In this document: positions 1 to 33,857 of the stretch, piece after piece | How the letters are laid out: every line of letters begins with the position of its first letter | Position numbering within the stretch: the first letter of the stretch is position 1 | NCBI GenBank assembly: GCA_963715985.1 | Contig: CAVQSP010000011.1 | Span: 288,001-352,000 of the forward strand | Reading direction: 5' to 3' | Length of the DNA: 64,000 bases | DNA from: an uncultured Thermoleophilia bacterium | GTDB taxonomy: Bacteria > Actinomycetota > Thermoleophilia > UBA2241 | The notes under the pieces: model-generated | Seen by the model: only the letters and a program-made list of their open reading frames with translations | Databases searched by the model: none | What the model was told of the DNA's origin: nothing | Made by a program: the position numbers and the translations under genes

Positions 1-859
1 CGTGATCGCCCTCAAGCAGGCCAACGTGGCCGTGGCGATGCAGGGCGGCAGCCAGGCGGCGCGCAGCGTCGGCGACCTCATCCTCATGAAGGACACCTTC
101 GCGCCGCTCCCCTTCGCCTTCCGGGAGGGCCAGCGCATCATCAACGGGATGAACGACATCCTGCGCATCTTCATGGTGCGCATCTTCTTCAAGGCCGCGA
201 TGATCGCCATCGTCATGTCGATCGGAGGGTTCCCCTTCGCCCCGCGACAGTCCGCCCTGCTCTCGTTCTTCGGTGCCACCGTGCCGGCCATCGCCTTCGC
301 GCTCTGGGCGCAGCCGGGGCCGACGCCCAAGGTCGGACTCTTCAAGCTCCTGGCGCGCTTCGTCCTGCCCACGGTCGTGTTCATGGCGGGGATCGGGACG
401 GCCGTGTACATGGTCTGGGCCATCCCGGCCGAGCACGTCGTCACGACCGTGGCCGGGACCACGGAGAAGGAACTGGCCGAGAGCGGCTACCCGCCGGCGA
501 TGACGGCGCTCACCATCTTCGCCTGCTTCGCCGCCATCTTCCTGATCATGCTCATCGTGCCCCCCAACAAGTGGTGGGCCGGCGGCGCGCCCGTGGTGCG
601 GCGCGACATGCGCATCGTCGGCGTCGTGATCTTCCTGTTCGCCTGCATGGCCGTGGTGCTGGCCGTGCCGCTGGGACGCACCCTGTTCGAGCTGCAGACG
701 CTGCCCGCGTGGCAGTACTTCGTGCTGCTGGGGCTCGCATTCGCGTGGAGCCAGCTGTGCCGGCTGGTGTGGTGGTCGCGCATCCTGGACCGCTGGCTGG
801 GGACCGCCGAGGACCCGGGCAACCTGTGCGCCAAGGCGCTCGCGGCGAAGCGGGGGTGA
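1..859 (+). CDS. Cation-transporting P-type ATPase, C-terminal part (truncated at window edge)
   Basis: ALKQANVAVAM..GSQAARSVGDLIL..F..EGQRIIN hinge region followed by multiple TM helices. Confidence 0.85.
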   Translation, partial: VIALKQANVAVAMQGGSQAARSVGDLILMKDTFAPLPFAFREGQRIINGMNDILRIFMVRIFFKAAMIAIVMSIGGFPFAPRQSALLSFFGATVPAIAFALWAQPGPTPKVGLFKLLARFVLPTVVFMAGIGTAVYMVWAIPAEHVVTTVAGTTEKELAESGYPPAMTALTIFACFAAIFLIMLIVPPNKWWAGGAPVVRRDMRIVGVVIFLFACMAVVLAVPLGRTLFELQTLPAWQYFVLLGLAFAWSQLCRLVWWSRILDRWLGTAEDPGNLCAKALAAKRG

Positions 860-13377: not shown

Positions 13378-13635
13378 ACGCGGGACACTATCACGGACCG
13401 TGAGGGTCGGACGGCTCGCCGGGAGCGAGGCCCACGCACACCGGCGTCGCTCCGCGTCCAACGCGCAGGCCTGAGGAAGGACGTTGTGGATAGTATGTAC
13501 GCGCGACTTTGGCCCTTCTGGACAAGACCAGCCCACCCGAGAAGCAGACCGGCCTCACATGACCGCCTCCCGCGTGCGTCACTGGCCAACAGAATGCGCC
13601 CTGTCGTGACGAAATGGCGTGCTCGCGCGCCTACG

Positions 13636-13667
13636 TGTGGACGCGTGCACAAGCGGGCCGCTATACT
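13636..13667 (+). promoter_or_regulatory. hdr-metVF operon promoter with Rex-like operator
   Basis: TGTGGACGCGTGCACA (13636-13651) matches the Streptomyces Rex operator TGTGAACGCGTTCACA at 14/16 and overlaps -35 TGGACG; -10 TATACT at 13662-13667. Confidence 0.7.
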
Positions 13668-13744
13668 TGCGAGACCCAAGTCAGGGTTCTGACTGTGGTT
13701 GCCAACTTTTCTGTCGGACCTGCCGCGTGTGCAAAGGAGTGCGT

Positions 13745-16700: not shown

Positions 16701-18190
16701 GGGTCGTGGTCGCGAGCTGCACGCCGCGCACGCACGAGCCCATCTTCCAGGACACCCTCCGCGAGGCCGGGCTCAACCCGTTCCTCTTTGAGATGGCCAA
16801 CATCCGCGACCAGGCGAGCTGGGTGCACGCCAAGGAGCCGGAGAAGGCCACGCAGAAGGCCAAGGAACTGGTACAGATGAGCGTGGCCCGCGCCCGGCTC
16901 CTCGAGCCGCTCTTCAAGGTCGACGTGCCGCTCACACACTCCGCCGTGGTCATCGGCGGCGGCGTGGCCGGCATGACCAGCGCCCTCGCCCTCGGCGACA
17001 TGGGCCACGAAGTGCACCTCGTGGAGCGCACCGGCAAGCTCGGCGGCTACGTCCTCGAGCTCGGCAAGACCATCAAGGGCAACGACCCCGCCGAGCTCGT
17101 CAAGGAGCTCGAGCAGCGCCTCGTGGACAACCCCAACGTCAAGATCCACCTCGACGCCGAGCTCGCCGACTTCCACGGTTTCATCGGCAACTTCTCCAGC
17201 ACCATCGCGGAGAAGGACGGCAAGCGCACGGCCGTGGACCACGGCGTCGTCATCGTCGCCACGGGCGCCAAGGAGGAAAGGCCGGAACTGTACGGCCTGG
17301 GCTCCGGCCAGAAGGTCATCACCGGCATGGACCTCGAGCACATGCTCAAGGAGGACGACCCGGCCCTCGCCGACATCAAGTCGGTGGGCTTCATCCTCTG
17401 TGCCGGTTCACTGGACGAGAACAAGCCCTACTGCTCGCGCACCTGCTGCCAGCAGAGCATCAAGAACGCCATCGCGCTCAAGGAGAAGGACCCCAGGCGC
17501 CCCGTGTACGTCTGGTTCAAGGAGATCCGCACCTTCGGCCTCCTCGAGGAGTACTACACCAAGGCGCGCGAGCTGGGCGTCATCTTCACGCGCTACGACA
17601 ACGACACGCTCCCCGACGTGAGCGCCAACGGCAGCGTCAGGATCAAGGCGCGCGACCCGTACCTGGGCCGCGACGTCGACATGCCGCTGGACTGTCTCGT
17701 GCTGGCCACGCCCACGATCCCGTCCGAGGGCGGCTCCGAGCTCAGCAAGATGCTCAAGGTGCCGCTCACCGCCGACGGGTTCTACCTCGAGGCGCACGTC
17801 AAGCTGCGCCCGGTGGACTTCGCCTCCGAGGGCATCTTCCTCTGCGGCTCGGCCCACTACCCCAAGAGCATCGAAGAGACGATCAACCAGGCCTACGCCG
17901 CGGCCGGTCGTGCCGCCGCCATCCTCGCCAAGCCGGTCATCAAGGCGGGCGGCGTGGTGGCCGAGGTCGACCAGGAGAAGTGCGCGGCCTGCCTCACCTG
18001 CGTGCGCGTCTGCCCCTACGAGGTGCCGATCATCGACCCCGTCGAGAAGAAGGCCCTTATCGAGGCGGCCGCCTGCCAGGGCTGCGGCATCTGCGTGAGC
18101 GAGTGCCCGGTGAAGGCCATCACCCTGCACCACTACACCGACGCGCAGATCTTCGCCAAGGAAGAGGCGCTCTTCATGGAGGTGAGCTGA
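13745..18190 (+). CDS. hdrA: Large HdrA (HdrL-type): two HdrA FAD modules, inserted GltD/NfnB-like NAD(P)H domain, ferredoxin motifs
   Basis: GGGIAG..LDKTFPTNDC; insert PCKRAC..CGRVC..CETDC, GAGPSG, GGGDVA; IQCVGSRD..CSSVCC; second module VFVCHCGSNI, GGGVAG, CSRTCC; terminal 2x[4Fe-4S]; AAGGAG RBS. Confidence 0.92.
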   Translation: MSGSPPKSTGAALVVGGGIAGMQCSLDLAEGGYKVYLVERAPALGGHMAQLDKTFPTNDCSMCTMAPKLVEAGRHLNIEMVTNSELIGLEGEPGNFNARVYHHARFVDPDKCTSCGECSPKCPVTVPNQYNEDLDERRAIYKLYPQAIPNTYAVTKNGHSPCKRACAVHTSAQGYVALIADGRFAEAYTVASEPNPFPAVCGRVCTHKCETDCTRGQIEAPIAIAGLKRFISDHAFDNVPLPDKAEVTFKEKVAVVGAGPSGLTAARDLALLGYEVTVLESKPEPGGMLRFGIPEYRLPKAALQQDIDRITALGVDLQCNKAAGKDFTIDGLMKKDGGGYKAVYLAVGLQGGRTLPIPGADAKGVLDAVSLLKAATLGEKVDMGKNVVVIGGGDVAFDAGRTALRLGAEKVTINCIEDDQSVPASDDELTEGLDESIAFNCSCMPSQILTDADGRANKVEFLACSLGAPDERGWRPPVAITGSEHELACDTVIFAIGQSMVDDFLEGTKGITVEKGQILTDKATLGTGKKGVFAGGDAAASAPWTAIEAVAAGRRAARSIHNFLRGEDLLPIEDDMMDEAKPEDAIMEQTAVMARMPMPHLPGAARKITWDEVNTGFSQEQAVAEAKRCLNCAVCSECMECVRACGPGALLHGERDKELEFEVGAVVMATGFDLYDPGKNSEYGYRRYPNILSSLEYERTLSASGPTVGEVKRPSDGTHPKKIAFIQCVGSRDQEHEYCSSVCCMYANKQAMLTIDHEPDCEPTVFLMDMRAQGKGFDAFYQRALDKGVKFVRSRPSYIKEDPLSDDLLISWEDEAGKLHETRYDMVVLSAGLEPARKAQEAAGHLGVALNRHGFCQLHEFNPMQTSREGVFVVGPFGEPKDIPDSVAQASAAAAQVMTGLADSRGTLTVDKEYPAERNVVGEEPRVGVFVCHCGSNIAGVIGVESVAEYAMQLPGVEYATDTMYTCSSDSLGLIREKIAEHNLNRVVVASCTPRTHEPIFQDTLREAGLNPFLFEMANIRDQASWVHAKEPEKATQKAKELVQMSVARARLLEPLFKVDVPLTHSAVVIGGGVAGMTSALALGDMGHEVHLVERTGKLGGYVLELGKTIKGNDPAELVKELEQRLVDNPNVKIHLDAELADFHGFIGNFSSTIAEKDGKRTAVDHGVVIVATGAKEERPELYGLGSGQKVITGMDLEHMLKEDDPALADIKSVGFILCAGSLDENKPYCSRTCCQQSIKNAIALKEKDPRRPVYVWFKEIRTFGLLEEYYTKARELGVIFTRYDNDTLPDVSANGSVRIKARDPYLGRDVDMPLDCLVLATPTIPSEGGSELSKMLKVPLTADGFYLEAHVKLRPVDFASEGIFLCGSAHYPKSIEETINQAYAAAGRAAAILAKPVIKAGGVVAEVDQEKCAACLTCVRVCPYEVPIIDPVEKKALIEAAACQGCGICVSECPVKAITLHHYTDAQIFAKEEALFMEVS

Positions 18191-18191
18191 G

Positions 18192-18773
18192 ATGGCCGAG
18201 GCTGAAGCCACCGCCGTCGAGACGCCCGTGGACGAGGTCCCCAGGAAGCCCGTGGACCCGGACTTCGAGCCCGAGATCATCGTGTTCGCGTGCCACTACT
18301 GCGCATACGCCGCGGCCGACCTGGCCGGCAGCATGCGCCTGCAATACCCGTCGAACATCCGCATGATCAAGCTGCCCTGCACGGGCAAGCTCGAGGTCAT
18401 CCACCTGCTCAAGGCCGTCGAGGCCGGCGCGGACGGCGTGTACGCCGCCGGCTGCCTCGAGGGTGAGTGCCACTACCTCAAGGGCAACCTGTGGGCGCGC
18501 AAGCGCATCACCCACGTGAAAGACCTGCTCAGCGAGCTCGGCATCGAGCCGGAGCGCGTGGAGATGTACAACATGTCGTCGGCCGAGGGCGCCAAGTTCG
18601 CGGCCGCGGCCACCGAGTTCACCGAGCGCATCAAGCAGCTCGGCCCCAGCCCCATCCGCCGTCACGGCGTGGACGCGCACGCCGCCGCGCGCGAAGCGCT
18701 CGGCGGCGTGGCCATGCCTGATGAACCCCATCCGTCTGCCGCGGCAACCGTCGAGGAAGGACACGCAGAATGA
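18192..18773 (+). CDS. mvhD: MvhD/FlpD [2Fe-2S] subunit
   Basis: FACHYCAYAAADLAG, LPCTGK, GADGV..GC..GECHY..GN. Confidence 0.93.
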   Translation: MAEAEATAVETPVDEVPRKPVDPDFEPEIIVFACHYCAYAAADLAGSMRLQYPSNIRMIKLPCTGKLEVIHLLKAVEAGADGVYAAGCLEGECHYLKGNLWARKRITHVKDLLSELGIEPERVEMYNMSSAEGAKFAAAATEFTERIKQLGPSPIRRHGVDAHAAAREALGGVAMPDEPHPSAAATVEEGHAE

Positions 18774-19453
18774 TCACCGCCGAACGCAAACCCTTCGACG
18801 AGATCGTCGGACTCGTCGGCGACAAGAAGAAGGTCCTCGTCGCCGGCTGCGACACGTGCGTCGCGATCTGCCTCACGGGTGGCGAGAAGGAGGCCGAGAT
18901 CCTGGCCAGCGAGCTGCGCATCAAGGCTGAGCAGGACGGCCGCGACGTCGCCATCGAGCACACCGCCGCCATCCGCCAGTGCGAGTGGGAGTACCTCGAC
19001 ATGATCGCCGCCAAGGTGGACGAGGCCGACATCGTGCTCAGCATGGCCTGCGGCATCGGCATCCAGAGCATGGCCGAGAAGTTCGCGCCCAAGCTCATCG
19101 TGCCGGCCGTCAACACCAACATGCTGGGCATGCCGCAGGAGCACGCCGTATGGCTCGAGCGCTGCGGCGCCTGCGGCGACTGCGTCATCGGCGAGACCGC
19201 CGGCATCTGCCCGGTGGTGCGCTGCAGCAAGAGCCTCATGAACGGCCCGTGCGGCGGCTCGCACGACGGCAAGTGCGAGGTCACGACGCCGGAGAAAGAA
19301 GAGCTCGACTGCGCCTGGGCGCTCATCTGGGACCGCCTCAAGGCGCAGGGTCGCGAAGAGATGATGTACGTCAACCGGCCGCCGAAGAACTGGAGCAAGA
19401 GCAGCTCCGGCGGCCCACGGAAGATGGTGCGTGAGGAGGCGAAGCCGGTATGA
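18770..19453 (+). CDS. metV: Methylene-THF reductase Fe-S/Zn subunit MetV
   Basis: GCDTCVAIC.TGGEKE, RQCE, ACGIG, C.ACGDC....TAGICP..RCSKSLMNGPCGG, C.W. Confidence 0.9.
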   Translation: MITAERKPFDEIVGLVGDKKKVLVAGCDTCVAICLTGGEKEAEILASELRIKAEQDGRDVAIEHTAAIRQCEWEYLDMIAAKVDEADIVLSMACGIGIQSMAEKFAPKLIVPAVNTNMLGMPQEHAVWLERCGACGDCVIGETAGICPVVRCSKSLMNGPCGGSHDGKCEVTTPEKEELDCAWALIWDRLKAQGREEMMYVNRPPKNWSKSSSGGPRKMVREEAKPV

Positions 19454-20394
19454 CCGCCACCGAGTACAAGGCTGGCAGCAACCTCGAGAAGGTCCTGAGC
19501 GCGGGCAAGTTCGCGGTCACCGGCGAGTGCGGCCCGCCGAAGAGCGCCGACGTGAGCGTCATCGAGGAGAAGGCCAAGATCCTCAAGGGCTACGTGGACG
19601 CCGTCAACATCACCGACAACCAGACCGCCGTGGTGCGCGTGTGCTCCATGGCCTCCGGCTACACTGCCCAGCAGAACGGCCTCGAGGCCATCATGCAGAT
19701 GACCTGCCGCGACCGGAACCGCCTGGCGATGCAGGCCGACATCCTCGGCGCCTACACCCTGGGCATCAAGAACATCCTCTGCCTCACCGGCGACCACATG
19801 AGCTTCGGCAACCACACTGAGGCCAAGGGCGTCCACGACCTCGACTCGCTCAACCTCATCAAGATGTACAAGGACATGCGCGACGAGAAGAAGTTCCAGT
19901 GCGGCGAGGAGATGCCGGTGGCTCCCGAGCTCTACATCGGCTGCGCCGAGAACCCCTTCGCCGACCCCTTCGAGTTCCGCGCCCTGCGCCTGCAGAAGAA
20001 GATCCAGGCCGGCGCCGACTTCATCCAGACCCAGTGCATCTTCAACGTCCCCAAGTTCAAGAAGTGGATGGAAGAGGTCCGTGCTCTCGGTCTGCACAAG
20101 GAGATCAAGATCCTCGCCGGCATCACGCCGCTCAAGGGCGTCGGCGGCGCCCGCTACATGCAGAACTTCGTCCCCGGCATCGACGTGCCCCAGGAGATCG
20201 TCGACCGTATGGCCGCCTGCGAGAAGGGCGCCCCGTCGCAGGCCGAGGGCAAGAAGATCGCCGTCGAGATGATCAAGGAGTTCGCCGAGATCGAGGGCGT
20301 GGCCGGCGTGCACATCATGGCCATCGAGTGGGAGATCGCCGTGCCCGAGATCGTGGAGGCCGCCGGCCTCATGCCGCGGCCCGCGGTAGCGTAG
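19450..20394 (+). CDS. metF: Methylenetetrahydrofolate reductase
   Basis: GECGPPK, VNITDN, QMTCRDRNRLA, LCLTGDH, KKIQAGADFIQTQ. Confidence 0.95.
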   Translation: MTATEYKAGSNLEKVLSAGKFAVTGECGPPKSADVSVIEEKAKILKGYVDAVNITDNQTAVVRVCSMASGYTAQQNGLEAIMQMTCRDRNRLAMQADILGAYTLGIKNILCLTGDHMSFGNHTEAKGVHDLDSLNLIKMYKDMRDEKKFQCGEEMPVAPELYIGCAENPFADPFEFRALRLQKKIQAGADFIQTQCIFNVPKFKKWMEEVRALGLHKEIKILAGITPLKGVGGARYMQNFVPGIDVPQEIVDRMAACEKGAPSQAEGKKIAVEMIKEFAEIEGVAGVHIMAIEWEIAVPEIVEAAGLMPRPAVA

Positions 20395-20404
20395 GAGGTC
20401 TGGA

Positions 20405-20986
20405 ATGACCACCTGCACAGTGAGCCCGCTCCTGGCCGAGAACATCGGCACAGGCTGCGGAGAGAACGCCTTCAAGTGCTACCAGTGCAAGCGCTGCACC
20501 AGCGGCTGCCCGGTGGCGCGCTACTCCGACATGCACCCGGCGATGATCATGCGCGCCGTGCAGCTCGGCCAGCTGGACATGGTGTTCGACGACCGTTTCA
20601 TCTGGCTGTGCACCGGCTGCGAGACCTGCACCACGCGCTGCCCGCAGGGCATCGACATCGCCGCCGTCATGGACGAGCTGAAGATCATCGCCCGGCGTGA
20701 CGGCCGCATCCCGGACGGCACGCCGTCCGCGCAGATGCTCAAACTGAACTACGACTCGTTCGTGCGCTGGGGTCGCATGTGGGAGGTCGAGCTGATCACC
20801 CGCGACGTGCTCAAGCGGCCGAGCAGCGCCAAGAACTGGTTCACGCTCGGCCCCAAGATGATGCTCAAGGGCAAGATCAACCCCACGCTCAAGCGCGGCG
20901 ACACGCTGGCCATGAAGCGCATGGTCCAGACCGCCGACAGCATCACCAAGGCGAAGATGCGGCGGCAGAAGGAGGGTCTGTCATGA
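20405..20986 (+). CDS. hdrC: Heterodisulfide reductase subunit C-like
   Basis: CYQCKRCTSGCP and IWLCTGCETCTTRCP. Confidence 0.9.
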   Translation: MTTCTVSPLLAENIGTGCGENAFKCYQCKRCTSGCPVARYSDMHPAMIMRAVQLGQLDMVFDDRFIWLCTGCETCTTRCPQGIDIAAVMDELKIIARRDGRIPDGTPSAQMLKLNYDSFVRWGRMWEVELITRDVLKRPSSAKNWFTLGPKMMLKGKINPTLKRGDTLAMKRMVQTADSITKAKMRRQKEGLS

Positions 20987-21849
20987 GCGCGACCCTCGCC
21001 TACTACCCCGGCTGCTCGCTGCACGGCACGTCCGGCGAGTTCGACGCCAGCTTCAAGGCCACGGCCAGGGCGCTGGGCCTCACCCTGCTCGAGATCCCCG
21101 GCTGGGAGTGCTGCGGCAACACGGCGGCGCACTCCATCAACCGCCTGCTCTCCACGGCCCTGCCGGTCAACGAGCTGGCCAAGGTGGAGCAGGACATGAA
21201 GCTCGACGCCGTGGCCGTGCCCTGCGCGGCCTGCTACAGCCGCTTCAAGACCGGCGCCCACGAGGTGGCCGAGGACGCGGAGACGGCGGCCGACGTGCGT
21301 GCCGTGGTCGGCCGCCCGTACAACGGCGGGGTCGAGGTCCACAACCTCATCGACGTCTACCACGACGCCGTGGGCCTCGACGCCCTGGAGTCCAGGGTCA
21401 CGCGCCCGTTCCGCGGCCTCAAGGTGGCCTGCTACTACGGCTGCCTGCTCACCAGGCCGCCCAAGGTCACCCTGGCCGACGACCCCGAGTACCCCATGCA
21501 CATGGACGAGGTCGTCAAGGCGCTGGGCTGCGAGCCGGTGCAGTGGAACTACAAGACCGACTGCTGCGGCGCCGCGCTGGCGCTCACCGAGCAGGGCATC
21601 GTCGACGACCTCGTCGGTCGCATCCTCAATGACGCGCGCGCCTGCGGCGCGGAAGCCGTTGCCGTGGCCTGCCCGCTCTGCCAGGTCAACCTCGACGGCC
21701 GCCAGGTCGAGATCACCAAGAAGCAGGGCGACTGGCGCAGCGTGCCGGTCATCTTCCTCAGCCAGCTGGTGGGCCGCGCGATCGGCATCGACGACAAGAC
21801 GCTGGGCTTGAGCAAGCACCTCGTCGACATCGCCGCCGTGATGGCGTAA
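20983..21849 (+). CDS. hdrB: Heterodisulfide reductase subunit B-like (CCG domains)
   Basis: YYPGCSL, WECCG, PCAACY, YYGCLL, CCGA, ACPLCQ.NLD; ATGA overlap with hdrC. Confidence 0.93.
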   Translation: MSATLAYYPGCSLHGTSGEFDASFKATARALGLTLLEIPGWECCGNTAAHSINRLLSTALPVNELAKVEQDMKLDAVAVPCAACYSRFKTGAHEVAEDAETAADVRAVVGRPYNGGVEVHNLIDVYHDAVGLDALESRVTRPFRGLKVACYYGCLLTRPPKVTLADDPEYPMHMDEVVKALGCEPVQWNYKTDCCGAALALTEQGIVDDLVGRILNDARACGAEAVAVACPLCQVNLDGRQVEITKKQGDWRSVPVIFLSQLVGRAIGIDDKTLGLSKHLVDIAAVMA

Positions 21850-21918: not shown

Positions 21919-22009
21919 CTGGAGGCGCGACCGCCCGCCCCAGCCTCTCGGCAAGCTTGCCGCGACGCGGTAGAGTGCGGGAGTAAGAGTGCGCGAAGAG
22001 GGAGCTACC

Positions 22010-22645
22010 ATGACTGAGGTCGTGCAGCCGGGGGCCGGGGGCCGCGTGCTCCTGGTGTACGCGACGCGGCACGGGTCCACGCGGGAGGTCGCCGAGGCGG
22101 TCGCCGAGGAGCTGCGTGCGGCCGGCGCCGAGGTGGAGTTGTGCGAGGCCTCGTCGGCGCCGGCGCCCGGCGGCTACGACGCGGTCGTGGTCGGCGCCCC
22201 GATGATCATGGGCTGGCATCGCGACGCCGAGAAATACGTCAAACGGCATCGCCAGGCACTGGCTCAAGTGCCGACGGCCTTCTTCGTGATGGCAGCGTCG
22301 CTCACCGACACCGGCGAGGGCGACGTGCGTGGCGTGCCCATCGTCAAGGACCCGTGGCTCGCCAAGAAGCCGCGCGAGGCCGGCAAGCTGCGCCGCAAGG
22401 AGCGCTACGCGCTGCCGGCGCACTACCTGGGCGACATCCTCGATGCCTGCGCCCCGGCGTGGCCGCGCACGGTGGCCTTCTTCGCGGGATCGCTCGACCT
22501 CACGACCATGAACGTCCTGGAGAAGCTCTTCGTGCTCCTCGTCATCGGCGCCACGCCCGGCGACGGGCGCAACTTCAAGGCCGTGCGCGAGTGGGCCGCC
22601 GAGCTGCCGGAGCGGCTGCGCCCGCCGGCCCCTCCGTCCGCCTGA
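22010..22645 (+). CDS. Flavodoxin-domain protein (HemG / Flavodoxin_5-like)
   Basis: LVYATRHGSTREVAEAVA, YDAVVVGAP, FFAGSLD, GDGRNFKAVREWA. Confidence 0.8.
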   Translation: MTEVVQPGAGGRVLLVYATRHGSTREVAEAVAEELRAAGAEVELCEASSAPAPGGYDAVVVGAPMIMGWHRDAEKYVKRHRQALAQVPTAFFVMAASLTDTGEGDVRGVPIVKDPWLAKKPREAGKLRRKERYALPAHYLGDILDACAPAWPRTVAFFAGSLDLTTMNVLEKLFVLLVIGATPGDGRNFKAVREWAAELPERLRPPAPPSA

Positions 22646-22804: not shown

Positions 22805-23464
22805 ATGAGCACCGTTGACGAACTCGTCAAGGCGGTCCAAGAGGGCAACGCCCCCCAGGCCGCCGACCTTGCCGCACGCGCGCTCGAGGAGGGCGCCGAC
22901 GCCGCCGGGCTGGTGGACTCGCTGTCCGCCGCCATGCGCGCCGTGGGCGACCGCTTCGGCACCGGCGAGATCTTTCTGCCGGAGCTGATGCTGGCGGCAC
23001 GCGCCATGCAGAAGGCCATGGACGTGCTGCAGCCCGCGCTGCTGGCGTCCGCCACCGCCAAGGGCAATCTGGGCGTCATCGTCCTCGGCACCGTGAAGGG
23101 CGACGTCCACGAGATCGGCAAGGACATCGCCATCACCATGCTTCGCGCCACCGGCTTCGAGGTGTACGACCTCGGCCGCGACGTGGACCCGCTGGACTTC
23201 GTCAAGCGCGCCGAGGAGCTGCACGCCGACATCATCGGCGCCTCCGCTCTGATGACCACCACCATGCCGGCTCAGCGGGAGCTCGTGGACATCCTCGTGG
23301 CCAAGGGCCTGCGCGACAAGTATCACGTGATCCTGGGAGGTGCCCCCGTGACGGCCGAGTGGGTGGCCGAGACGGGCGCCGACAGCTGGGGCGAGGACGC
23401 CGCCAAGGCGGCCAAAACGCTCGAGGAGTTCATGGCCGGCAAACGCGCGGGCGCGGGAGAGTGA
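22805..23464 (+). CDS. Methyltransferase cognate corrinoid protein (MtmC/MttC-like)
   Basis: Cap motif VGDRF..GEIFLPELMLAA; B12-binding GTVKGDVHEIGK (DxHxxG); SALMTTT; GGAP. Confidence 0.93.
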   Translation: MSTVDELVKAVQEGNAPQAADLAARALEEGADAAGLVDSLSAAMRAVGDRFGTGEIFLPELMLAARAMQKAMDVLQPALLASATAKGNLGVIVLGTVKGDVHEIGKDIAITMLRATGFEVYDLGRDVDPLDFVKRAEELHADIIGASALMTTTMPAQRELVDILVAKGLRDKYHVILGGAPVTAEWVAETGADSWGEDAAKAAKTLEEFMAGKRAGAGE

Positions 23465-23468
23465 CGGC

Positions 23469-24848
23469 ATGTCGCACCTGAAGATGTGGGAGATCATGGA
23501 GCGGGCCGCCGAGGGCCCGTACTGCGAGGACGACGAGTTCCTCTACGACGTCTTCCTGCCGACGATGCAGGACGTGCTGCAGAAGTACGAGATCAAGTTC
23601 GACCCGGCCACGCCGGTGCCCGCCGACGACGACCTCGCCGACCGCGTGTGGAAGGCGGCAGTGGAGCTCTTCCTCAAGGTCGGCGTGCACAACGTGGACA
23701 CGCACCGCCGCATCCTCATCACCGAGGACGAGCTCAACGAGGCGCTCTTCCTGGCGCCGCAGGTGCACCAGGTCGGCGCCGGTCACGAGACGCGCTGGTG
23801 GATGCCGCGCAAGATCGAGGACCCGCGCGGCCCGTTCTGCATCTTCAGCCCGGACATCACGTACGACGAGGACATCTTCCTGCAGGCCTCCATGGCCTAC
23901 GTGCAGGAGCCGCTCGCCGACGGCGTCTGCGGCCCTATCCTCGAGGAGTCCATCGGCCGCACCATCCACTCGGGCACGCCCACCGAGATGGCCGGCGTCA
24001 TGGAGCACGCCATGCTCCTGCGCAACGCCGCCAAGCTCGTCGGCCGCCCGGGCCTCTTCCTCGTGGCTGTGGGCACGGCGCAGTCGGACGTCGGCCAGGT
24101 GGCCGTGAGCAACAACGAGTGGGGCGTGCGCAGCAGCGACGGGCGTCTCATCGGCGTGCTCACCGAGATGAAGACCGACAACGAGCTGCTCAACAAGGTG
24201 GCGCACTGCAAGCAGTTCGGCTGCGCCATCGGCTGCCTCACCGGCGCGATCTACGGCGGCTACGCCGGCGGCGCCGAGGGCACGGCGGTGCTCGAGGTGG
24301 CACACCACCTCGTGGGCCTCACCGTGTACCAGCACAACTTCAACAACAGCTTCCCGTTCCACATGCAGCACACGTCCAACAGCGGCCGCGAGATGCTGTG
24401 GCTGGTGAGCATGGTGCACCAGGCGCTGGCCCGCAACAGCCGCATCCTCAGCACGAGCAACGGCTTCTTCAACGCCGGCCCCGGCACGGAGATGATCTTC
24501 CGCGAGGCCGCCGCGCACGCCATCGCCAGCGTGGTGAGCGGCGGCGACCTGTGGACGGCGGCGCCGCGCCACAACAAATACCGCAACTACGCCACGCCGC
24601 TGGAGGCGCGCCTCGCCTGCGAGGCCGGCCACGCCGTGGCGCTGCAGGGCATGACCCGCGAAAAGGCCTGTGAGGTCGTCGACACGCTCCTCAAGAAGTA
24701 CGAGGGCGAGATCGCCACGGCCCCCGAGGGCAAGCCCTTCCAGGAGTGCTACGAGGTCATGAAGGTCAAGCCGCAGGGCTGGTACCTGGACATGTACAAG
24801 GCCGCCAGGGAGGAGCTCGCGGGACTGGGCGTCGAGTTCCCGTATTGA
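23469..24848 (+). CDS. MtmB-family (monomethylamine:corrinoid methyltransferase-like) protein without pyrrolysine
   Basis: 459 aa; ERA..GP, KY.IKF...PVP.DDDLADRV, THRRI, GRPG, GGYAGG.EG, P.EAR, P.GK.FQECY, LG..F typical of MtmB; no in-frame TAG. Confidence 0.85.
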   Translation: MSHLKMWEIMERAAEGPYCEDDEFLYDVFLPTMQDVLQKYEIKFDPATPVPADDDLADRVWKAAVELFLKVGVHNVDTHRRILITEDELNEALFLAPQVHQVGAGHETRWWMPRKIEDPRGPFCIFSPDITYDEDIFLQASMAYVQEPLADGVCGPILEESIGRTIHSGTPTEMAGVMEHAMLLRNAAKLVGRPGLFLVAVGTAQSDVGQVAVSNNEWGVRSSDGRLIGVLTEMKTDNELLNKVAHCKQFGCAIGCLTGAIYGGYAGGAEGTAVLEVAHHLVGLTVYQHNFNNSFPFHMQHTSNSGREMLWLVSMVHQALARNSRILSTSNGFFNAGPGTEMIFREAAAHAIASVVSGGDLWTAAPRHNKYRNYATPLEARLACEAGHAVALQGMTREKACEVVDTLLKKYEGEIATAPEGKPFQECYEVMKVKPQGWYLDMYKAAREELAGLGVEFPY

Positions 24849-25040: not shown

Positions 25041-25099
25041 GGGCCGGCGGCGCGAGGCAGCGGCGGGCCGGTGGCGCGAGGCAGCGGCGGGCCGGCGGC
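25041..25099. repeat. 24-bp tandem repeat, about 2.5 copies
   Basis: GGGCCGGYGGCGCGAGGCAGCGGC at 25041 and 25065, partial copy at 25089. Confidence 0.85.
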
Positions 25100-25109
25100 A
25101 CCTGCAGGT

Positions 25110-25144
25110 CGCAAGAGGGGCGCCCCATGGGCGCCCCTCTTGCG
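25110..25144 (-). terminator. Hairpin ending the DUF1638 operon
   Basis: 16-bp perfect stem CGCAAGAGGGGCGCCC; paralog of the 24884 hairpin. Confidence 0.55.
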
Positions 25145-25216
25145 TCTCGTCATCAGCCGGCCTTCACGGCCCGGCCGGGCTTCCCGGCTGCGCGCCGTCA
25201 CGCGGCGCGAGTGGCG

Positions 25217-25465
25217 TCAGCTCCCGTCTTCCTGCTCGGCCAGCACTTCCGCGTAGACGCGGTCCAGGCCTCGCTCCAGGATCTTGCGGCGCCACACCAC
25301 AGCTCAGCGGCAGACCTGCCCGTCGCTGTGGTTGGGGAAGCACACCTCCCGTTCGGCCGGCGTCATCGCCGCGACACGGGCCGCGAACGCGGCGCCGTCC
25401 TCCGGCGCCTCCTGCAGACCGGCCGGCCGATCGGCGCCGCCCTCACCATGTCGTGCGTCCTGCAT
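25217..25465 (-). CDS. Putative small selenoprotein, 82 aa, in-frame TGA at codon 54 (not in ORF track)
   Basis: AGGAG RBS; MQDARHGEGGADRPAGLQEAPEDGAAFAARVAAMTPAEREVCFPNHSDGQVCR-TGA(25304-25306)-AVVWRRKILERGLDRVYAEVLAEQEDGS*; 24 of 28 codons after the TGA end in G/C. Confidence 0.65.
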
Positions 25466-25485
25466 GCGTCACGTCTCCTGATCGC

Positions 25486-25914
25486 TCACGGGAGCGGGTC
25501 CTGGTCCCACTCCGACGGTGTGTAGGCGCACCCCGGCTCGCCGCCCACGGCGAGGAGCGCGGTGCCGGGCGCTGTGGCCACCGCGCCGCGCCGGCTCTTG
25601 GGGTCGCGCACGTAGACGAAGGTCCCGGCCGGGGCGTCGAACTCCTCGCCGTCCACCTTGAAGCGGGCGCTGCCCGTCACCACGAGGTAGAGCTCCTCGT
25701 GGCGCGTGCCCGACTCGGGGTCCTCGGTGTGGTCCTCGGTGAGCACGTCACCGGCCTTGGGAGCGCGGAAGAGGTTGGTGCCGAACGAGCCGATGCCGAA
25801 GAAGCGGCGCAGCGGCTTCCACTCCGTCTCCGGGGCCCACTCGTACGGGATCGTGGGGATGTCGTCGATGCTCGCGGCCGTGTACTTCGCCGCGCCCTGC
25901 CGCTCGTCGCTCAT
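25486..25914 (-). CDS. Cupin-domain protein
   Basis: DHTE....HEELYLVVTG.A.F.VDGE...P.GT.V.V; GAGGAGG RBS. Confidence 0.85.
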   Translation of the reverse strand: MSDERQGAAKYTAASIDDIPTIPYEWAPETEWKPLRRFFGIGSFGTNLFRAPKAGDVLTEDHTEDPESGTRHEELYLVVTGSARFKVDGEEFDAPAGTFVYVRDPKSRRGAVATAPGTALLAVGGEPGCAYTPSEWDQDPLP

Positions 25915-25965: not shown

Positions 25966-26703
25966 TCAATCGGCAGCCGGCATGCACCCGCAGCCGCAGG
26001 CCTCGCAGCCCACAGGGTTCGGCGCGGTCTCGGGCGCCGGCTCCGTGTCGCCGAGCTCCCAGAAGATCTCCTCGCCCAGCACCTGCCCGGGCTCCACGAC
26101 GATGAACTCGTCGTCGTGCGGCCCGCGGATGAGCTTCTCGAGCAGCCGCAGCGAGCCGTCGAGCTGGATGACGGGCAGGCTGTAGAACTCCGAGACGGTC
26201 TCCACGTACTCGTGCGCCTTGTCGAGGTCGTAGGTGCCGGTGTCGATGACGGCCACGCGCGTGTACGACTCCATGATCATGTGCGCGACCATGCGGGCCT
26301 TCTCCTCACCCATGCGCGGGATCATCTTGAGGTACTCGCGGTACGGGTCCTCGAGCTCCTCGATCCAGCCGCGGGTGTAGTAGTACGTGCCGGGGTGCTC
26401 GCCAAACTCACGCAGGTAGGCGCGCCGGGAGCCCAGGAGGATGGCGATGCAGTCGTCGCAGGCGGGCAGGATCAACCGGTGCGAGCCCGCCACCAGCTCA
26501 GCCGTACCGTTGGAGCAGCGGCCGTAGCCGAGCAGGATGGTGCAGTCGTCCGGGGTGGCGGCGATCGCCTCGTTGATCTTCGCGCGGAGCACGTCCGGAG
26601 TGTCGTGCAGGAAGCCCTCGAGGTACTCCACCGGGATGTCCCCGCGGAGCGCCTCGACCTCGTCGCGGATGGTGCTGCAGGCGATGATCTTGTAGTCGGC
26701 CAT
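25966..26703 (-). CDS. DUF1638-family protein
   Basis: IIAC, LH.TP..LR, ILLGYGRCSNG, DDCIAILLGS, TYYYT.GW, IDTG; Cys-rich tail CEACGCGC. Confidence 0.85.
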   Translation of the reverse strand: MADYKIIACSTIRDEVEALRGDIPVEYLEGFLHDTPDVLRAKINEAIAATPDDCTILLGYGRCSNGTAELVAGSHRLILPACDDCIAILLGSRRAYLREFGEHPGTYYYTRGWIEELEDPYREYLKMIPRMGEEKARMVAHMIMESYTRVAVIDTGTYDLDKAHEYVETVSEFYSLPVIQLDGSLRLLEKLIRGPHDDEFIVVEPGQVLGEEIFWELGDTEPAPETAPNPVGCEACGCGCMPAAD

Positions 26704-26904: not shown

Positions 26905-26957
26905 ACCTTCTCACAGCCGCCTCGGGCGGCCATGGTCAGCTCTTGGCGGACTTCACC

Positions 26958-28508
26958 TTACTTGGTCACCTGGAAGGAGTCGGTATCCATGGCGGACTGC
27001 GCGTTGCCGGCGGCGTCCGTCGCGAAGACCTTCACCTTGTACTTGCCCGGCGACAGCTTGCAGGTGAACGAGATGCTGTACTTCTGGTTGGAGGTCTTGG
27101 TGCCGCCGTTGACGCTCTTCTTCACGGCGCCGTTCGAGTTGTAGATCTTGATCGAGATACTGCTGCACTGCGGCGTGATGCTGTTGCAGATGTAGCTGAT
27201 CTTGCAGGTCTTGCCCTTCTTCACACTGGAGGGTGCGAAGGCCTCGGTCTGCGGACCGGTGGTGCAGATGTTGACGGTCGCCTGGGCCGTCTGGCTCTGC
27301 GCGCCGGTGTTGTCGAGCGCGTAGACCTGGACCGAGTTCACGCCGTTCGTGATGCCGCCCTGCGGGCCCGGCACGGTGATGGTGGTGCCGCTCAGCGTCG
27401 TGAAGGGCATGCTGCCGATCAGGTACATGACCTTCTGGATGCCGCTCTGGCTGTCGCTGGCATTGACCGTCAACGTGACCGGCTGGTTGTGCCACAGGTC
27501 GTCCGCGCCGCTGATGGTGACGACCGGGATCGTGGTCTCAGCGTTCACCGTGAACGGCAGCGACGCCGTTGGCGTGCCGGACGCGCCGTTACGCACCGCG
27601 AAGTTCAGGGTCCCCGCGTTGGCGATGTCGGCGGCGGTGAGTTGGCAGGTCATCTGCGTGGCGCTCACGTAGGTCGCGGCGTGCACGGCGCCATTCACGA
27701 GCACCTGCGTGTTGCCGCTCTGGAAGTTGGTGCCGCTGAGCGTCACGGACGGCGGACTGATGAGCTTGGCCCAGGTCTGCGCCGGGTTCAGCCCGATCAG
27801 TGTAGGGACCGGGGCGGTGACGACGAACGGTACCGGGTTGGAGGTCAGCGCGCCGGCCATGACCGTGAGCTGCGCGGCGCCCGGGTTGGCGATGAGCGCG
27901 GCGGGCACGATGGCCGTGCACGTTGCGGTCGGGTTGGGGAGCCCGCCGGGCGAGGTGACGAGCGCAGTCGAGTTCCAGTAGACGGTGGGAGAGGTGCCGA
28001 AGTTGGCGCCGTTCACCGTCAACGTGAAGGCCGCCCCGCCCGCGACGGCGGTCTGGGGCCGGACCGACGCGATGGTCGGACTCGTGGCAGGAGGCGTACC
28101 CGTGATGGTGAACGCGCCGGCGCGGAAGATCTCGTCGGGGACGATCTGACCGAAGCCGGTGTAGTAATCGACGACGACGTCGTAGGTACCGGCGCTCTCG
28201 AGGTAGGTGTTGATGCTACAGGCGATGTAGTCGCCGCCCAACATGGTCACGACGTAGGGATTGGAGGCGTGGACGACGTCATAGGGCCAGACCGTCTGCT
28301 GCAGCGTCACCTGGTCTATGTCCAGGATCTGCGAGAAGTTCTGGCCGAAGATCTTGAGCTGATACGTGTTGTAGTTGGTGTTCGACCCCGAGGTCGGGTC
28401 CACGCCCGTAATGTACGGGGCCGCGGCGAAGGCGCTCGCGGCATACACGAAGCTCAAGACGAGCACCACCGTAAGGACCAACATGACACCCAGACTGCGT
28501 TTCTTCAT
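26958..28508 (-). CDS. Secreted IPT/TIG (Ig-like) repeat protein, paralog 1
   Basis: Sec signal peptide; repeated P.I..V.P...T..GxNF units; Lys-rich C-terminal domain ending ATDAAGNAQ. Confidence 0.85.
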   Translation of the reverse strand: MKKRSLGVMLVLTVVLVLSFVYAASAFAAAPYITGVDPTSGSNTNYNTYQLKIFGQNFSQILDIDQVTLQQTVWPYDVVHASNPYVVTMLGGDYIACSINTYLESAGTYDVVVDYYTGFGQIVPDEIFRAGAFTITGTPPATSPTIASVRPQTAVAGGAAFTLTVNGANFGTSPTVYWNSTALVTSPGGLPNPTATCTAIVPAALIANPGAAQLTVMAGALTSNPVPFVVTAPVPTLIGLNPAQTWAKLISPPSVTLSGTNFQSGNTQVLVNGAVHAATYVSATQMTCQLTAADIANAGTLNFAVRNGASGTPTASLPFTVNAETTIPVVTISGADDLWHNQPVTLTVNASDSQSGIQKVMYLIGSMPFTTLSGTTITVPGPQGGITNGVNSVQVYALDNTGAQSQTAQATVNICTTGPQTEAFAPSSVKKGKTCKISYICNSITPQCSSISIKIYNSNGAVKKSVNGGTKTSNQKYSISFTCKLSPGKYKVKVFATDAAGNAQSAMDTDSFQVTK

Positions 28509-28804
28509 TGTCACCCTCCTCTTTGCTTACCAAGACGTCGTGCGCAGAACCGAAAAAAGTGCGTAGCTGGTGCTCCTCTCCCCCACACTACAGGCATGTT
28601 CGACCCCGACCACTTCTTACCTACTATCGGCATCCTTCTCCGGGTCTGAAGTTCTGACGCACGTCGGAGAGCCACGGACCGACTGCCGTTTCGCTGGGCT
28701 TACCCGTCTTGCGCGGCGTGTATGCAGATCTGGCAACAGGGGCGGACCGGGAACCTCGCGCTGCGCAAGGAACCGGCGAACGGCCGACTCGCAGAGCGGC
28801 CCAC

Positions 28805-28895: not shown

Positions 28896-30470
28896 TCACC
28901 TGGTCACCTTGAAGGAATCCCCATCCATCGAGGTCTGGTCGTTGCCCGCGGCGTCGGCGGCGTAGACCCTGTACCTGTAGTTCCCCGGCGCCAGCTTGCA
29001 CGTGAAGGACTTGTTTCCCCGGGTGTTCGAAGGCCGCTGGCCGACGTTGATCGTCTTGGCGAGCGAGCCGTTCGACTTGAAGATCTTGAGCTTGATGGTG
29101 CAGGTCGGGGTGATGCTGTCGGCGCGGTAGCCGAGCTTCAGCGTCTTGCCCTTCTTGACTCTGCTCGGCGCGAACGCCTGGGTCTCGGGACCCACCGTGC
29201 AGATGTTCACGGTCACCGTCTTGGGCGGCGACTCGACGTTGTTGCAGTCGTCCGTCGAGAACACCGAGACGACCTGGGCGCCGTCGCCGCTGCCGCCGGC
29301 CGGCGCCGGGACGGTGATGGTGGTGCCCGAAAGCGTGAGCCATGCGGGCGTCACGCCGGAAGAGCCGATGCCGTACTGCGTCATCTGCACGCCGGCGCCG
29401 CCGGGGTCACTGGCGCTGACCGTGAGGACGACCGGCGCGTTGTGCCAGGCGGTGTCGGCGCCCGAGATGGTCGTGACCGGCGCCGTGGCATCGGCGCTCA
29501 GGGTGAGCGACTGGGTCGCAGAGATGCCGCCGCCCGGCTCGGGGTTCTGCACCGCGAAGCTGATCGTGCCCGGGGTGGCGATGTCGGCCGCGGTCAGCGC
29601 CAGGCTGAGCTGGGTGGGGCCGACAAGCGTCGCCGACCGGGCCGCACCGTTCATGAGGACCTTCGACCCACTCACGAAGTTCGTGCCGGTCAGCAGGACC
29701 GTGTACGGCTGGTAGTACTTCGCCCAGCCCGTGGTCGGACTGATGCTCGTCAAGGTCGGGGCGGGAGTCACGACGTCGATGGTGATGATGTTGGACTGCC
29801 CTCCCCCGGGAGCCGGGTTGACGACCTTGATGCTCGCCGTTGTCGGCGTGGCGATCAAGGCGGCGGGCACCGCAGCTCTGAGCGAGGTCGTGGGGTTGGG
29901 CAGCATGCCGGTGGTCGTGAGAGCAGTCGAGTTCCAGTAGACGACGGCCGGGAAGAGCCCGCCGGCAGCGAAGTTCGCCCCTGCGACGATGAGGTCGAAC
30001 CCGGCTCCGCCGACGACGACCTTGGACGGGGTCAGCGAGTTGATGGTGGGCCCCATCAGGCCGGGCTGGGACACGGTGAAGACGCCGTACAGCGTGCTCT
30101 TGTCCGGAATGACCTGGCCCAGCCCCGTGTAGTACTCGATGACCACGTTGTACGTCCCGGCATGCTGACCATAGGTGTTGAGCGTGCACGTGATGGTGGG
30201 CGGAAGCAGGGAGTTGACCTGCTCAGCGCTCGCGTAGATCACGTCGAACGGCGGACCGTTCTGCTCCAGGCGCACGTTGAGGCCGCCGGTGATCTCGCTG
30301 AAGTTGGAGCCCAGGATGTACAGCGTGAAGTCCGCCGCGTTCGTGTTGAGGCGGGTGTTCGGGTTCACGCTCGTGAACGTCGGGGCCGCCAGCGCGGTGG
30401 TGGCGAGCCCGAGGCCCAGAATCACGACAAGGATCACCCCTGCCAGGAACCCCACGGTTCGTCTGTTCAT
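28896..30470 (-). CDS. Secreted IPT/TIG repeat protein, paralog 2
   Basis: Colinear with paralog 1 (YWNSTAL, LPNPT, WAK, TISGAD..WHN.PV, VNICT.GP.T.AFAPS.VKKGKT); GGAGG RBS before ATG 30470. Confidence 0.85.
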   Translation of the reverse strand: MNRRTVGFLAGVILVVILGLGLATTALAAPTFTSVNPNTRLNTNAADFTLYILGSNFSEITGGLNVRLEQNGPPFDVIYASAEQVNSLLPPTITCTLNTYGQHAGTYNVVIEYYTGLGQVIPDKSTLYGVFTVSQPGLMGPTINSLTPSKVVVGGAGFDLIVAGANFAAGGLFPAVVYWNSTALTTTGMLPNPTTSLRAAVPAALIATPTTASIKVVNPAPGGGQSNIITIDVVTPAPTLTSISPTTGWAKYYQPYTVLLTGTNFVSGSKVLMNGAARSATLVGPTQLSLALTAADIATPGTISFAVQNPEPGGGISATQSLTLSADATAPVTTISGADTAWHNAPVVLTVSASDPGGAGVQMTQYGIGSSGVTPAWLTLSGTTITVPAPAGGSGDGAQVVSVFSTDDCNNVESPPKTVTVNICTVGPETQAFAPSRVKKGKTLKLGYRADSITPTCTIKLKIFKSNGSLAKTINVGQRPSNTRGNKSFTCKLAPGNYRYRVYAADAAGNDQTSMDGDSFKVTR

Positions 30471-30783
30471 CGCCCTCCTCCTCCTCTTGCCGATACGGTC
30501 CTTCGCCACCCTCGTGGATCGCGCCGGACGCACGCCTCTGGCGCACGCCACACGCCCTCGTCGGACAAGAGCCCGGCAGAGCTGACGGTGTCGCGCCCGG
30601 GTCTTCGGCCCCGGCGCGGGTGGCATGGCTCCCCTTCTTCTCGGCTTTACCCTTCTGGCACGGGCTTTACGCCGATAGGACGGGGGTAATCGTGGGCAGG
30701 ACCGCGGCGGAGCGGCGATGGAGGCCCGACATCGGGTGAGGGGAGGGCGGGGCGGGCCTGCGGCCCGCCCCGCCCTCCCCGGC

Positions 30784-32819: not shown

Positions 32820-33857
32820 ATGAGCGCGGGCATCGCCAAGGTCCCGACAGGGGAGCACGAGAAGCGGGTGTTGAACGGCTGGGGGATGCTCGTCGTGGCC
32901 ATCGCCCTGTATGTCGCCACGCCTGTGCTCGTCGTCTACGCGTTCCTCAGCGGCACGACGACGTCGAGCGGGAGTGCGCAACCGGTCTGGTGGATGTTCA
33001 TCGCCGGCATGGTCGCGCTCGGTGTGGCGATCCTCCTCTCCCCCGGCTTCTTCACGCTGCAGCCCAACGAGGCACGCGTGCTCATCCTCTTCGGCAGTTA
33101 CAAAGGCACCTGCAAACAGGGCGGCTTCCACTGGGGCAACCCTTTCTATGCCAACGGACCCACCGGGCAGACCGGCGGCACTTCGGTCTGGACGCAGAGC
33201 AAGAACAAGGGTGAGGGCGAGGCCGCCCAGAAGGCCCCCAAGAAGCTCAAGCGCTACAAGATCAGCCTGCGCGCGCGCACGCTCAACGGCGAGAGGCTCA
33301 AGGTGAACGACAAGCGCGGCAATCCCGTGGACATCGCCGCCGTCGTGGTCTGGCGCGTGGAGGACACGGCGAAGGCGGTCTTCGACGTGGACGACTACGA
33401 GTCGTACGTGGCCACGCAGAGCGAGACGGCGGTGCGGCACCTCGCCAGCACCTACCCCTACGACTCGGGCGAGACGTTCGCCGACACGCCCGACGAGACC
33501 ACCCTGCGCGGCAACGTCGACGAGGTCTCGGAGGCGCTGCGCGTGGAGCTCGGCGAGCGTCTCGCGCAGGCCGGCGTCACCGTGGAGCAGGCGCGTCTCA
33601 CGCACCTCGCGTACACGCCCGAGATCGCCCAGGCGATGCTCCGCCGCCAGCAGGCGGAGGCCGTCATCGCCGCGCGCCGCAAGATCGTCACCGGCGCCGT
33701 GAGCATGGTCGAGATGGCACTGAACGACTTCACCGCGCACGGCACCGTGGCGTTCGACGACGAGCGCAAGGCGGCCATGGTGAGCAACCTGATGGTCGTC
33801 CTCTGCGGCGAGAGTCAGGTCACCCCGGTCGTGAACACCGGCACCCTGTACACGTGA
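32820..33857 (+). CDS. SPFH / band-7 domain membrane protein
   Basis: [43 protein letters not shown]. Confidence 0.9.

Follow-up and report, generated by a model that had tools for sequence, protein, structure and literature searches.

The small gene at the end of the DUF1638-cupin unit

The analysed stretch of DNA, hereafter the window, comprises 64,000 nucleotides (nt) of an uncultured Thermoleophilia bacterium (assembly GCA_963715985.1, contig CAVQSP010000011.1, positions 288,001 to 352,000), and its minus strand carries a three-gene unit in which a DUF1638 gene (26730-25966; PF07796, E 3.7e-41) comes first, a cupin gene (25914-25486; 142 amino acids, weak Cupin_2 match) second, and a small gene (25465-25217), with the cupin gene directly upstream of it, last. 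The small gene, which has homologs in relatives, comprises 82 codons and a TGA stop codon at 25219-25217 (UGA2), and is crossed at codon 54 by a further in-frame TGA (25306-25304; UGA1), the predicted selenocysteine (Sec) codon U54, with Cys52 (25312-25310) two residues upstream. Its ATG (25465-25463) lies 20 nt 3' of the cupin stop, with an AGGAG ribosome-binding site (25479-25475) 9 nt 5' of it, and both agree with the initial annotation of this DNA; GGAG-like motifs were observed 5' of the ATG in all seven small-gene loci compared. A recount also reproduced the annotated TGA at codon 54 and the 28 codons between it and UGA2, 24 of which end in G or C, although this count is weak evidence alone because the genome is 70% GC. 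The codon-position GC content, about 0.87 at the third position and about 0.4-0.6 at the second, follows one frame across both sides of UGA1. Judged from sequence comparison, 25465-25217 is very probably a real gene that encodes a selenoprotein of 82 residues, from a family not described so far. The core proposal of the initial annotation, a small selenoprotein with a link to corrinoid genes and from a family that was not recognised, finds support. The UGA at codon 54 would be read as Sec by the organism's SelB/tRNA-Sec system, giving a Cys52-x-Sec54 pair that would cap the N-terminus of a long amphipathic helix.

The TGA does not stem from an assembly error, because contigs of four public runs (records 1, 8, 11 and 14) that span 25304-25306 carry it unchanged, a check that the initial annotation had proposed, and a divergent variant in run X2 has a synonymous change in the codon right after the TGA. 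The DNA of the small gene is present in about 20 wetland and soil metagenome runs. A genome-wide screen for in-frame TGA codons with coding signal on both sides yielded 118 candidates, nearly all of them gene junctions, among which only fdhA and the small gene stood out.

All four genes of the Sec machinery that the initial annotation had named for checking (selA, selB, selC and selD) are present in the genome, including a tRNA-Sec (67 bits; ARAGORN call SeC(tca)), SelA, and a SelB with winged-helix domains. One in-frame TGA each is carried by selD (G000 C13:101879-102703), fdhA (G000 C10:180093-182087) and two peroxiredoxin (Prx) genes (G000 C8:85664-86029 and C5:32848-33213); GrdB gave no match, and the control genomes were silent too. 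Across the genus, 46 of 54 genomes gave SelA and 44 of 54 a Sec-type SelD. A point that weighs against selenocysteine at codon 54 is that two of the 12 genomes carrying the TGA form, G021 (90% complete) and G011 (66%), have no SelA above the family cut-off and no SelD; we assume that the contigs concerned are missing, since one contig (C13) bears the clustered sel genes in the genome of the window.

Conservation of the TGA codon and the protein family

Homologs were detected at several scales, and they bear out the expectation of the initial annotation that the TGA and the peptide beyond it would be conserved and that Cys homologs would exist. Of 41 genomes of relatives searched in six frames, 7 carry the gene; these belong to one genus, and each has one in-frame TGA. 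When the whole genus was searched with a profile, 12 of 54 genomes yielded a strong match (E <= 6e-12), again with one in-frame TGA each, and there were eight weak matches without a stop that are probably spurious. In a class sample of 301 genomes, matches were confined to the family of the window, with seven in its genus that carry the TGA and two in sister genera without a stop, and the small gene was not found in 245 genomes of 11 other families covered by this class search. The metagenome scan produced 18 loci, of which 15 have TGA at the site and three (L062, L063 and L064) have a Cys codon (TGC/TGT), and two further Sec forms (L122 and L124) came from contigs of metagenome-assembled genomes (MAGs). 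Altogether, the Thermoleophilia genus and the metagenomes supplied 27 distinct DNA sequences of the Sec type, and in all 27 the TGA occupies the same column.

The database proteins recovered by a word search stop exactly at ...V-C-R in eight cases out of eight and have therefore been shortened by gene callers at the UGA. An exhaustive profile search of 1.84 billion representatives matched 23 proteins, comprising 18 full-length Cys forms, three Sec-form fragments and two likely spurious matches; the 18 Cys-form clusters (P0010-P0027) are 65-111 amino acids long and display H-S-D-G-x-V-C-R-C-A-V-x-W-R. The residue aligned to U54 in stop-free relatives is always Cys, in all three such loci and all 18 clusters.

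Beyond the TGA, the peptide A-V-x-W-R-x3-L-x-R-G is conserved while its codons change synonymously; across 22 sequences, A55, V56, R59 and G66 are invariant in this part and W58, L63, R65 and R69 nearly so. An ordinary stop at codon 54, with a 53-residue product and a downstream stretch that is a tiny open reading frame (ORF) or an RNA element, would agree with gene callers, which end the protein there, and since release factor 2 always competes at UGA, some 53-residue product has to arise. However, conserved amino acids with synonymous codon changes are seen from the very first codon past the TGA, each Cys form is one ORF without interruption that has its Cys precisely in the TGA column, the codon-position GC signature continues in frame, and L015 and L016 have no start codon within the eight codons after the TGA, a span that includes the A-V-x-W-R codons, so that a separate downstream ORF does not account for the conservation. 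We regard termination as the main fate of codon 54 as very improbable.

Two of the small-gene copies are irregular. In L044 (G056:C5, about 572576-572764) the usual M-Q-D start is out of frame with the rest of the ORF, an irregularity that a frameshift, an assembly error or another start site could explain, and L049 (G053:C12, about 33688-33795) is a degenerate copy that lacks the N-terminal half and adjoins a flavodoxin gene, with neither cupin nor DUF1638, and is probably a decaying copy.

The small gene was sorted into three RNA groups, A (which includes the window), B and C, and the proteins of groups A and B are only 36-41% identical. The residues G49, V51, C52, U/C54, A55, V56, R59 and G66 are invariant in the 22 sequences. 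The initial annotation had described the site as C42-x3-H46-x5-C52-x-TGA, and this arrangement is indeed present in the window; yet group A itself has N, F, T or H in place of C42 in some members, and H46 is missing in group C, so that the invariant motif is C-x-U, or C-R-C in the Cys forms. An AlphaFold2 model of the 61-residue core, built on the 22-row alignment, is all-helical with a predicted local distance difference test score of 81.6, and in it the C and U cap the N-terminus of a helix that extends over residues 32-60 of the core; Foldseek comparison of this model with the PDB returned no fold match. The read-through protein matched no family in Pfam (E <= 0.01) or NCBIfam (E <= 1), and the family is therefore considered undescribed. 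No DUF1638-linked selenoprotein was found reported in the literature, where the supplementary gene lists of deep-Sep (PMC12013277) and BSepDB (PMC13326102) could already contain the family.

Several small redox selenoproteins covered in PMC13188914 (SelW-like CxxU, thioredoxin-like 'Sec.1' CxU, rhodanese-like form 3 CxU and UshA-like CxU) have in common with the small protein a UGA near a conserved Cys, the existence of Cys homologs, Sec at the start of a helix and database entries shortened at the UGA. The Pfam and NCBIfam models of the families named there, however, do not match the small protein, which differs in its all-helical core, with no thioredoxin or rhodanese fold, and in its confinement, among the genomes searched, to one family of Thermoleophilia-type MAGs. 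The selenoproteins of the HgcA and SAO loci (Haft and Gwadz, bioRxiv 10.1101/2022.07.06.499078) are similar in having an overlooked Sec near a Cys, a corrinoid or organometallic link in anaerobes and shortened database entries, but their motif is C-U instead of C-x-U, and they belong to unrelated families with no homology detected. The present gene adds a selenoprotein family that lies outside the curated models, and whose Sec forms gene callers truncate at the UGA.

RNA elements downstream of the predicted selenocysteine codon

The consensus of the bacterial Sec insertion sequence (SECIS), bSECIS, as given in PMC13188914, has a loop of 3-9 nt whose first two positions contain G, as a rule with G or U next, a stem of 4-16 bp, a distance from UGA to loop of 16-37 nt and an MFE (minimum free energy) not above -7.5 kcal/mol, and the bacterial SECIS elements published in PMC1088965 and PMC13188914 are located just downstream of the UGA. 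This consensus is followed by the four recognised Sec genes of the present genome, with G-U at +21 to +31 in all four and with the loops GGUCU in fdhA, CGUGC in selD and AGUU in both Prx genes; the selD loop reads CGUGU in two of 24 distinct sequences of the genus. In the second Prx gene a small hairpin at +10..+20 directly precedes the SECIS hairpin, a miniature layout of spacer plus SECIS.

The two hairpins that the initial annotation had placed after UGA1 both exist in the window, with energies of -7.3 kcal/mol for the first (loop at +13..15, 9 nt from the UGA) and -3.4 kcal/mol for the second, but they miss the spacing or loop rules of bSECIS and are not kept in groups B and C, and were rejected as SECIS candidates. 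RNAalifold, applied to seven sequences after UGA1, returned only a hairpin that contains the UGA itself, with its loop at +6..+10 and one covarying pair, and an Rfam scan of 25050-25500 gave no SECIS family, only a terminator-like match. In groups A and B the synonymous sites after UGA1 vary freely, and no local hairpin is common to them.

The most conserved RNA element of the locus lies past UGA2, where the initial annotation had seen a terminator-like hairpin; it resembles a SECIS instead. This element, P2 (25209-25191, minus strand), is a hairpin of 19 nt in the 3' untranslated region (UTR), with a 7-bp stem and the loop C-G-U-G-A (25202-25198), and begins 8 nt past the stop codon with an energy of -12.7 kcal/mol. 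Bar one C-to-U change that retains a G.U pair, the stem is identical in 11 of 11 sequences of groups A and B, and the loop CGUG(A/C/U), with A, C or U as the fifth base, follows the C-G-U-G-N pattern of the selD SECIS of the genus. Its loop, stem and MFE fall within the bSECIS consensus, whereas its distance from UGA1 falls outside.

The bases between the stop codon and P2 (UGACGCC...) are likewise conserved and are complementary to the W-R codons after UGA1, forming the candidate long-range helix P1, whose 5' strand (25295-25286, minus strand) covers +12..+21 after the U of UGA1 at the codons of W58-R59-R60 and whose 3' strand (25219-25211, minus strand) consists of UGA2 and the conserved bases that follow. 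In 12 of 12 intact sequences of groups A and B, the fold of lowest energy has P1 directly followed by P2; this does not hold for the degenerate copy L049, where the P1 partner is mismatched and the P2 stem broken. On an alignment of 11 sequences P1 is 86% paired, compared with 20-63% when the partner strand is slid, and it uses two interchangeable registers, with columns 15-16/98-99 in five sequences and column 21/93 in the other six. Where L044 has an L codon in place of the W codon, its 3' UTR carries two compensatory changes.

These features suggest an arrangement in which P2 with its loop CGUGA, and not the local sequence, would be the SECIS bound by SelB, while P1 would pair the W-R codons with the stop-codon context and loop out the last ~70 nt of the ORF. 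The ribosome leaves the RNA exposed from about +11 onward. With UGA1 in the A site, a formed P1 would set the base of P2 beside nt +12 and P2 next to the ribosome, and the G-U bases of P2, counted across the helix junction, would then stand ~22-26 nt from the UGA, which corresponds to canonical spacing. Provided that the gene encodes a selenoprotein, this bridging of P2 to UGA1 by P1 has about an even chance of being correct.

Group C presents a different architecture. P2 is absent from the 13 distinct sequences of this group, in which nt +11..+59 after UGA1 are almost invariant and hold two hairpins: H1, with 12 bp at +11..+39 and freely varying loop bases, has loops U[C/G/U]AC that fail the bSECIS loop rule, and H2, directly after H1, has the loop C-G-U-G-G and an energy of -7.5 kcal/mol, borderline with respect to the cut-off, with its loop 44 nt from the Sec codon and thus outside 16-37 nt. 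Outside H1 and H2, 8 of 9 third-codon positions vary, compared with only 2 of 13 inside (Fisher p = 0.0015). H1 may act as a spacer in group C, in the same role as P1 in groups A and B. In L047, L068, L069 and L070, the 8 nt after the stop (following UGAC) perfectly complement the 5' strand of H1, as do 7 of 8 in L065, and in this subset of group C a P1-like long-range helix could compete with H1; such a helix is the minimum-energy fold in L069.

The Cys forms carry H1 with two to three or more mismatches and H2 with a changed loop and lower stem, and a hairpin with a selD-type loop accompanies 23 of 24 intact TGA forms for which the 3' flank is available (for L122 and L124 the loop was read from the sequence) and none of the Cys forms. 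This distribution bears on whether UGA1 could be read by a near-cognate Trp, Cys or Arg tRNA, giving a full-length protein without selenium, as the lack of a canonical SECIS at the canonical distance might suggest. Such readthrough would leave the association of the hairpin with the TGA forms to be explained, and it runs against the use of Sec in selD in 44 of the 54 genomes of the genus and against the Cys at the aligned position in every stop-free relative, which is the classic Sec/Cys pattern; we give it very little probability.

A number of observations weigh against P2 as the SECIS for UGA1. No hairpin in the window satisfies the 16-37 nt rule after UGA1, and the start of the P2 loop is separated from UGA1 by 101 nt, but from UGA2 by only 14 nt. 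The folding energy from UGA1 to P2 is no better than that of shuffled sequences (z = -0.78 and -1.11), the 11-nt core motif of P2 is common (95 copies in the genome; three in the window, against 1.9 expected), both compensatory pairs of P1 come from L044 alone and the observed covariation was reached by 14-15 of 500 shuffles, and P2 and H2 show conservation but no covariation because neither ever varies. The folding energies, the frequency of the motif and the single source of the P1 covariation would also be expected if Sec were inserted at UGA1 through a local, unrecognised element, with P2 serving otherwise, as a stability or termination hairpin, a protein site or a site of SelB titration, and with P1 as chance complementarity. 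The position of SECIS elements published for bacteria, just downstream of the UGA (PMC1088965, PMC13188914), agrees with such an element as well, and group A retains a small hairpin at +45..+58 with a loop beginning G-U. On the other hand, the freely varying synonymous sites and the missing common hairpin after UGA1 in groups A and B speak against a local element, group B has no hairpin with a G-U loop within ~60 nt of UGA1, P2 is far more conserved than the protein, and group C, which lacks P2, has its own in-ORF CGUGG hairpin, both being absent or degraded in the Cys forms. A local element is a possible explanation, though we consider it rather unlikely.

A terminator function of P2 is opposed by a stronger terminator-like hairpin further downstream, with a GC-rich 15-bp stem (25143-25111, assigned to neither strand), which lies between convergent genes and is likely to be their shared transcription terminator. 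P2 might instead be a canonical SECIS for UGA2, which would also encode Sec, with the protein extending further. It starts 8 nt after UGA2, its G-U stands at +19/+20, compared with +21..+24 in selD and fdhA, and UGA2 is followed by C, as is the Sec codon of fdhA. The frame beyond UGA2, however, shows no conservation past the hairpin and no coding GC signature, and runs stop-free through the terminator into the antisense of the MtmB-family gene described below, and the 14-nt spacing from UGA2 to the loop is under the 16-37 nt range. An extended protein of this kind appears improbable, although some Sec insertion at UGA2 is possible because this spacing is just under the 16-nt limit.

P2 and H2 are like the canonical bacterial SECIS (PMC13188914; fdhF of E. 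coli, PMC8659212) in being short GC-rich hairpins with a loop of 5 nt that has G-U as its second and third bases, but they differ in their distance (101 nt and wholly in the 3' UTR for P2, 44 nt for H2, as against 16-37 nt) and would need the proposed bridge P1 or spacer H1. P2 is also like the 3'-UTR SECIS elements of archaea and eukaryotes in lying past the stop codon, from where it would act on an upstream UGA; the organism is different, however, with a bacterial SelA and a SelB that has winged-helix domains, and the loop of P2 is of the bacterial G-U type as opposed to the kink-turn/GA-quartet or GAA_A features given for eukaryotes and archaea in PMC13188914. No bridged or 3'-UTR bacterial SECIS was found in the literature.

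The full scheme, with a bacterial SECIS in the 3' UTR whose SelB-binding hairpin lies ~100 nt downstream of the Sec codon and is stapled back by a long-range helix, with an in-ORF spacer hairpin in sister lineages and the loss of both devices in the Cys forms, and with a selenol that perhaps serves corrinoid reactivation, is put forward tentatively, at somewhat less than an even chance. If true, it would be an exception to the textbook contrast between bacterial SECIS elements in the ORF and archaeal or eukaryotic ones in the UTR, and would offer three interchangeable RNA architectures for one Sec codon with the Cys forms as natural controls; genes with bridged or 3'-UTR elements would be invisible to SECIS finders, because these look 16-37 nt after the UGA.

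Gene neighbourhood and possible role

The order DUF1638-cupin-small gene was observed in every Sec-type locus long enough to show neighbours, and the cupins of relatives, which are 77-90% identical, all sit before the small gene. DUF1638, cupin or both adjoin the small gene in every long-enough locus except L106 and the degenerate L049. The Cys forms occur in varied contexts, such as DUF1638-small gene (L062 and L063), small gene-DUF1638 (L064) and cupin-small gene (L105), and in L106 the small gene lies beside DUF1847, an S-adenosylmethionine methyltransferase and a B12-binding protein. A B12-binding gene is found within 4 kb of the small gene in the window, L105 and L106. In the window, a B12-binding corrinoid protein gene (22805-23464, plus strand) and an MtmB-family methyltransferase gene (23469-24848, plus strand; Pfam E 2.7e-92) are convergent with the small-gene unit, and a flavodoxin gene (21989-22645, plus strand) precedes the corrinoid protein gene; the MtmB-family gene is without a pyrrolysine codon, because it contains no in-frame stop. 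Two RamA-like genes were found in the genome, along with about five DUF1638 loci, just one of which has the cupin and small gene.

A study of Phaeobacter inhibens (Price et al., bioRxiv 10.1101/192971) describes DUF1638 mutants that were rescued by added methionine, DUF1638 being needed for B12-dependent methionine synthesis, and reports that DUF1638 co-occurs with a RamA-like corrinoid activator, for which its authors gave no mechanism. The small gene resembles the DUF1638/RamA-like module (bioRxiv 10.1101/192971; PMC12478193) in that it would be co-transcribed with DUF1638 beside a corrinoid protein and a methyltransferase, but the passages of these accounts considered here mention neither a small C-x-C or C-x-U partner nor a cupin. 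The small protein may, as a doubtful first suggestion, be a thiol/selenol redox or cobalt-ligand partner of DUF1638 and the metal-binding cupin that keeps the corrinoid protein of the MtmB system active and reduced, in which case its C-x-U pair could be either a selenenylsulfide redox centre or a ligand of cobalt or another metal. It tells against this role that the link to corrinoid reactivation comes from gene neighbourhood and one genetic study of a distant DUF1638, and a metal chaperone for the cupin or a methyl acceptor are possible alternatives. A Cys-x-Sec or Cys-x-Cys partner of DUF1638 would point to thiol/selenol chemistry in corrinoid maintenance.

The tails of DUF1638, compared for the window, L038, L047, L065, L066, L073, L074, L062 and L063, are of two types, either Cys-rich with C-E-A-C-G-C-G-C (in the window, at 25966-26010) or ending in ...E-A-C-P-G followed by TGA, and in several loci as well as the window the DUF1638 frame continues through one or more in-frame TGA codons into the cupin ORF. 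The TGA after ...A-C-P-G was considered as a Sec codon and rejected; it is read as an ordinary stop because the hairpin that follows lies at too short a distance and its loop lacks G-U, and no conserved peptide follows.

On the plus strand, upstream of the operon that ends in the flavodoxin, corrinoid protein and MtmB-family genes, the region 13619-21849 contains the gene of an HdrA-like flavoprotein of 1523 amino acids, followed by MvhD (FlpD), MetV-like, MetF (MTHFR), HdrC-like and HdrB-like (CCG) genes; by its gene content the region looks like an Hdr-MetFV-type methylene-tetrahydrofolate reductase cluster. In addition, the region of about 26950-28750 has a GC content of 0.57-0.65, compared with 0.70 for the window, and lies inside two large IPT/TIG-domain genes (26958-28514 and 28896-30626, minus strand).

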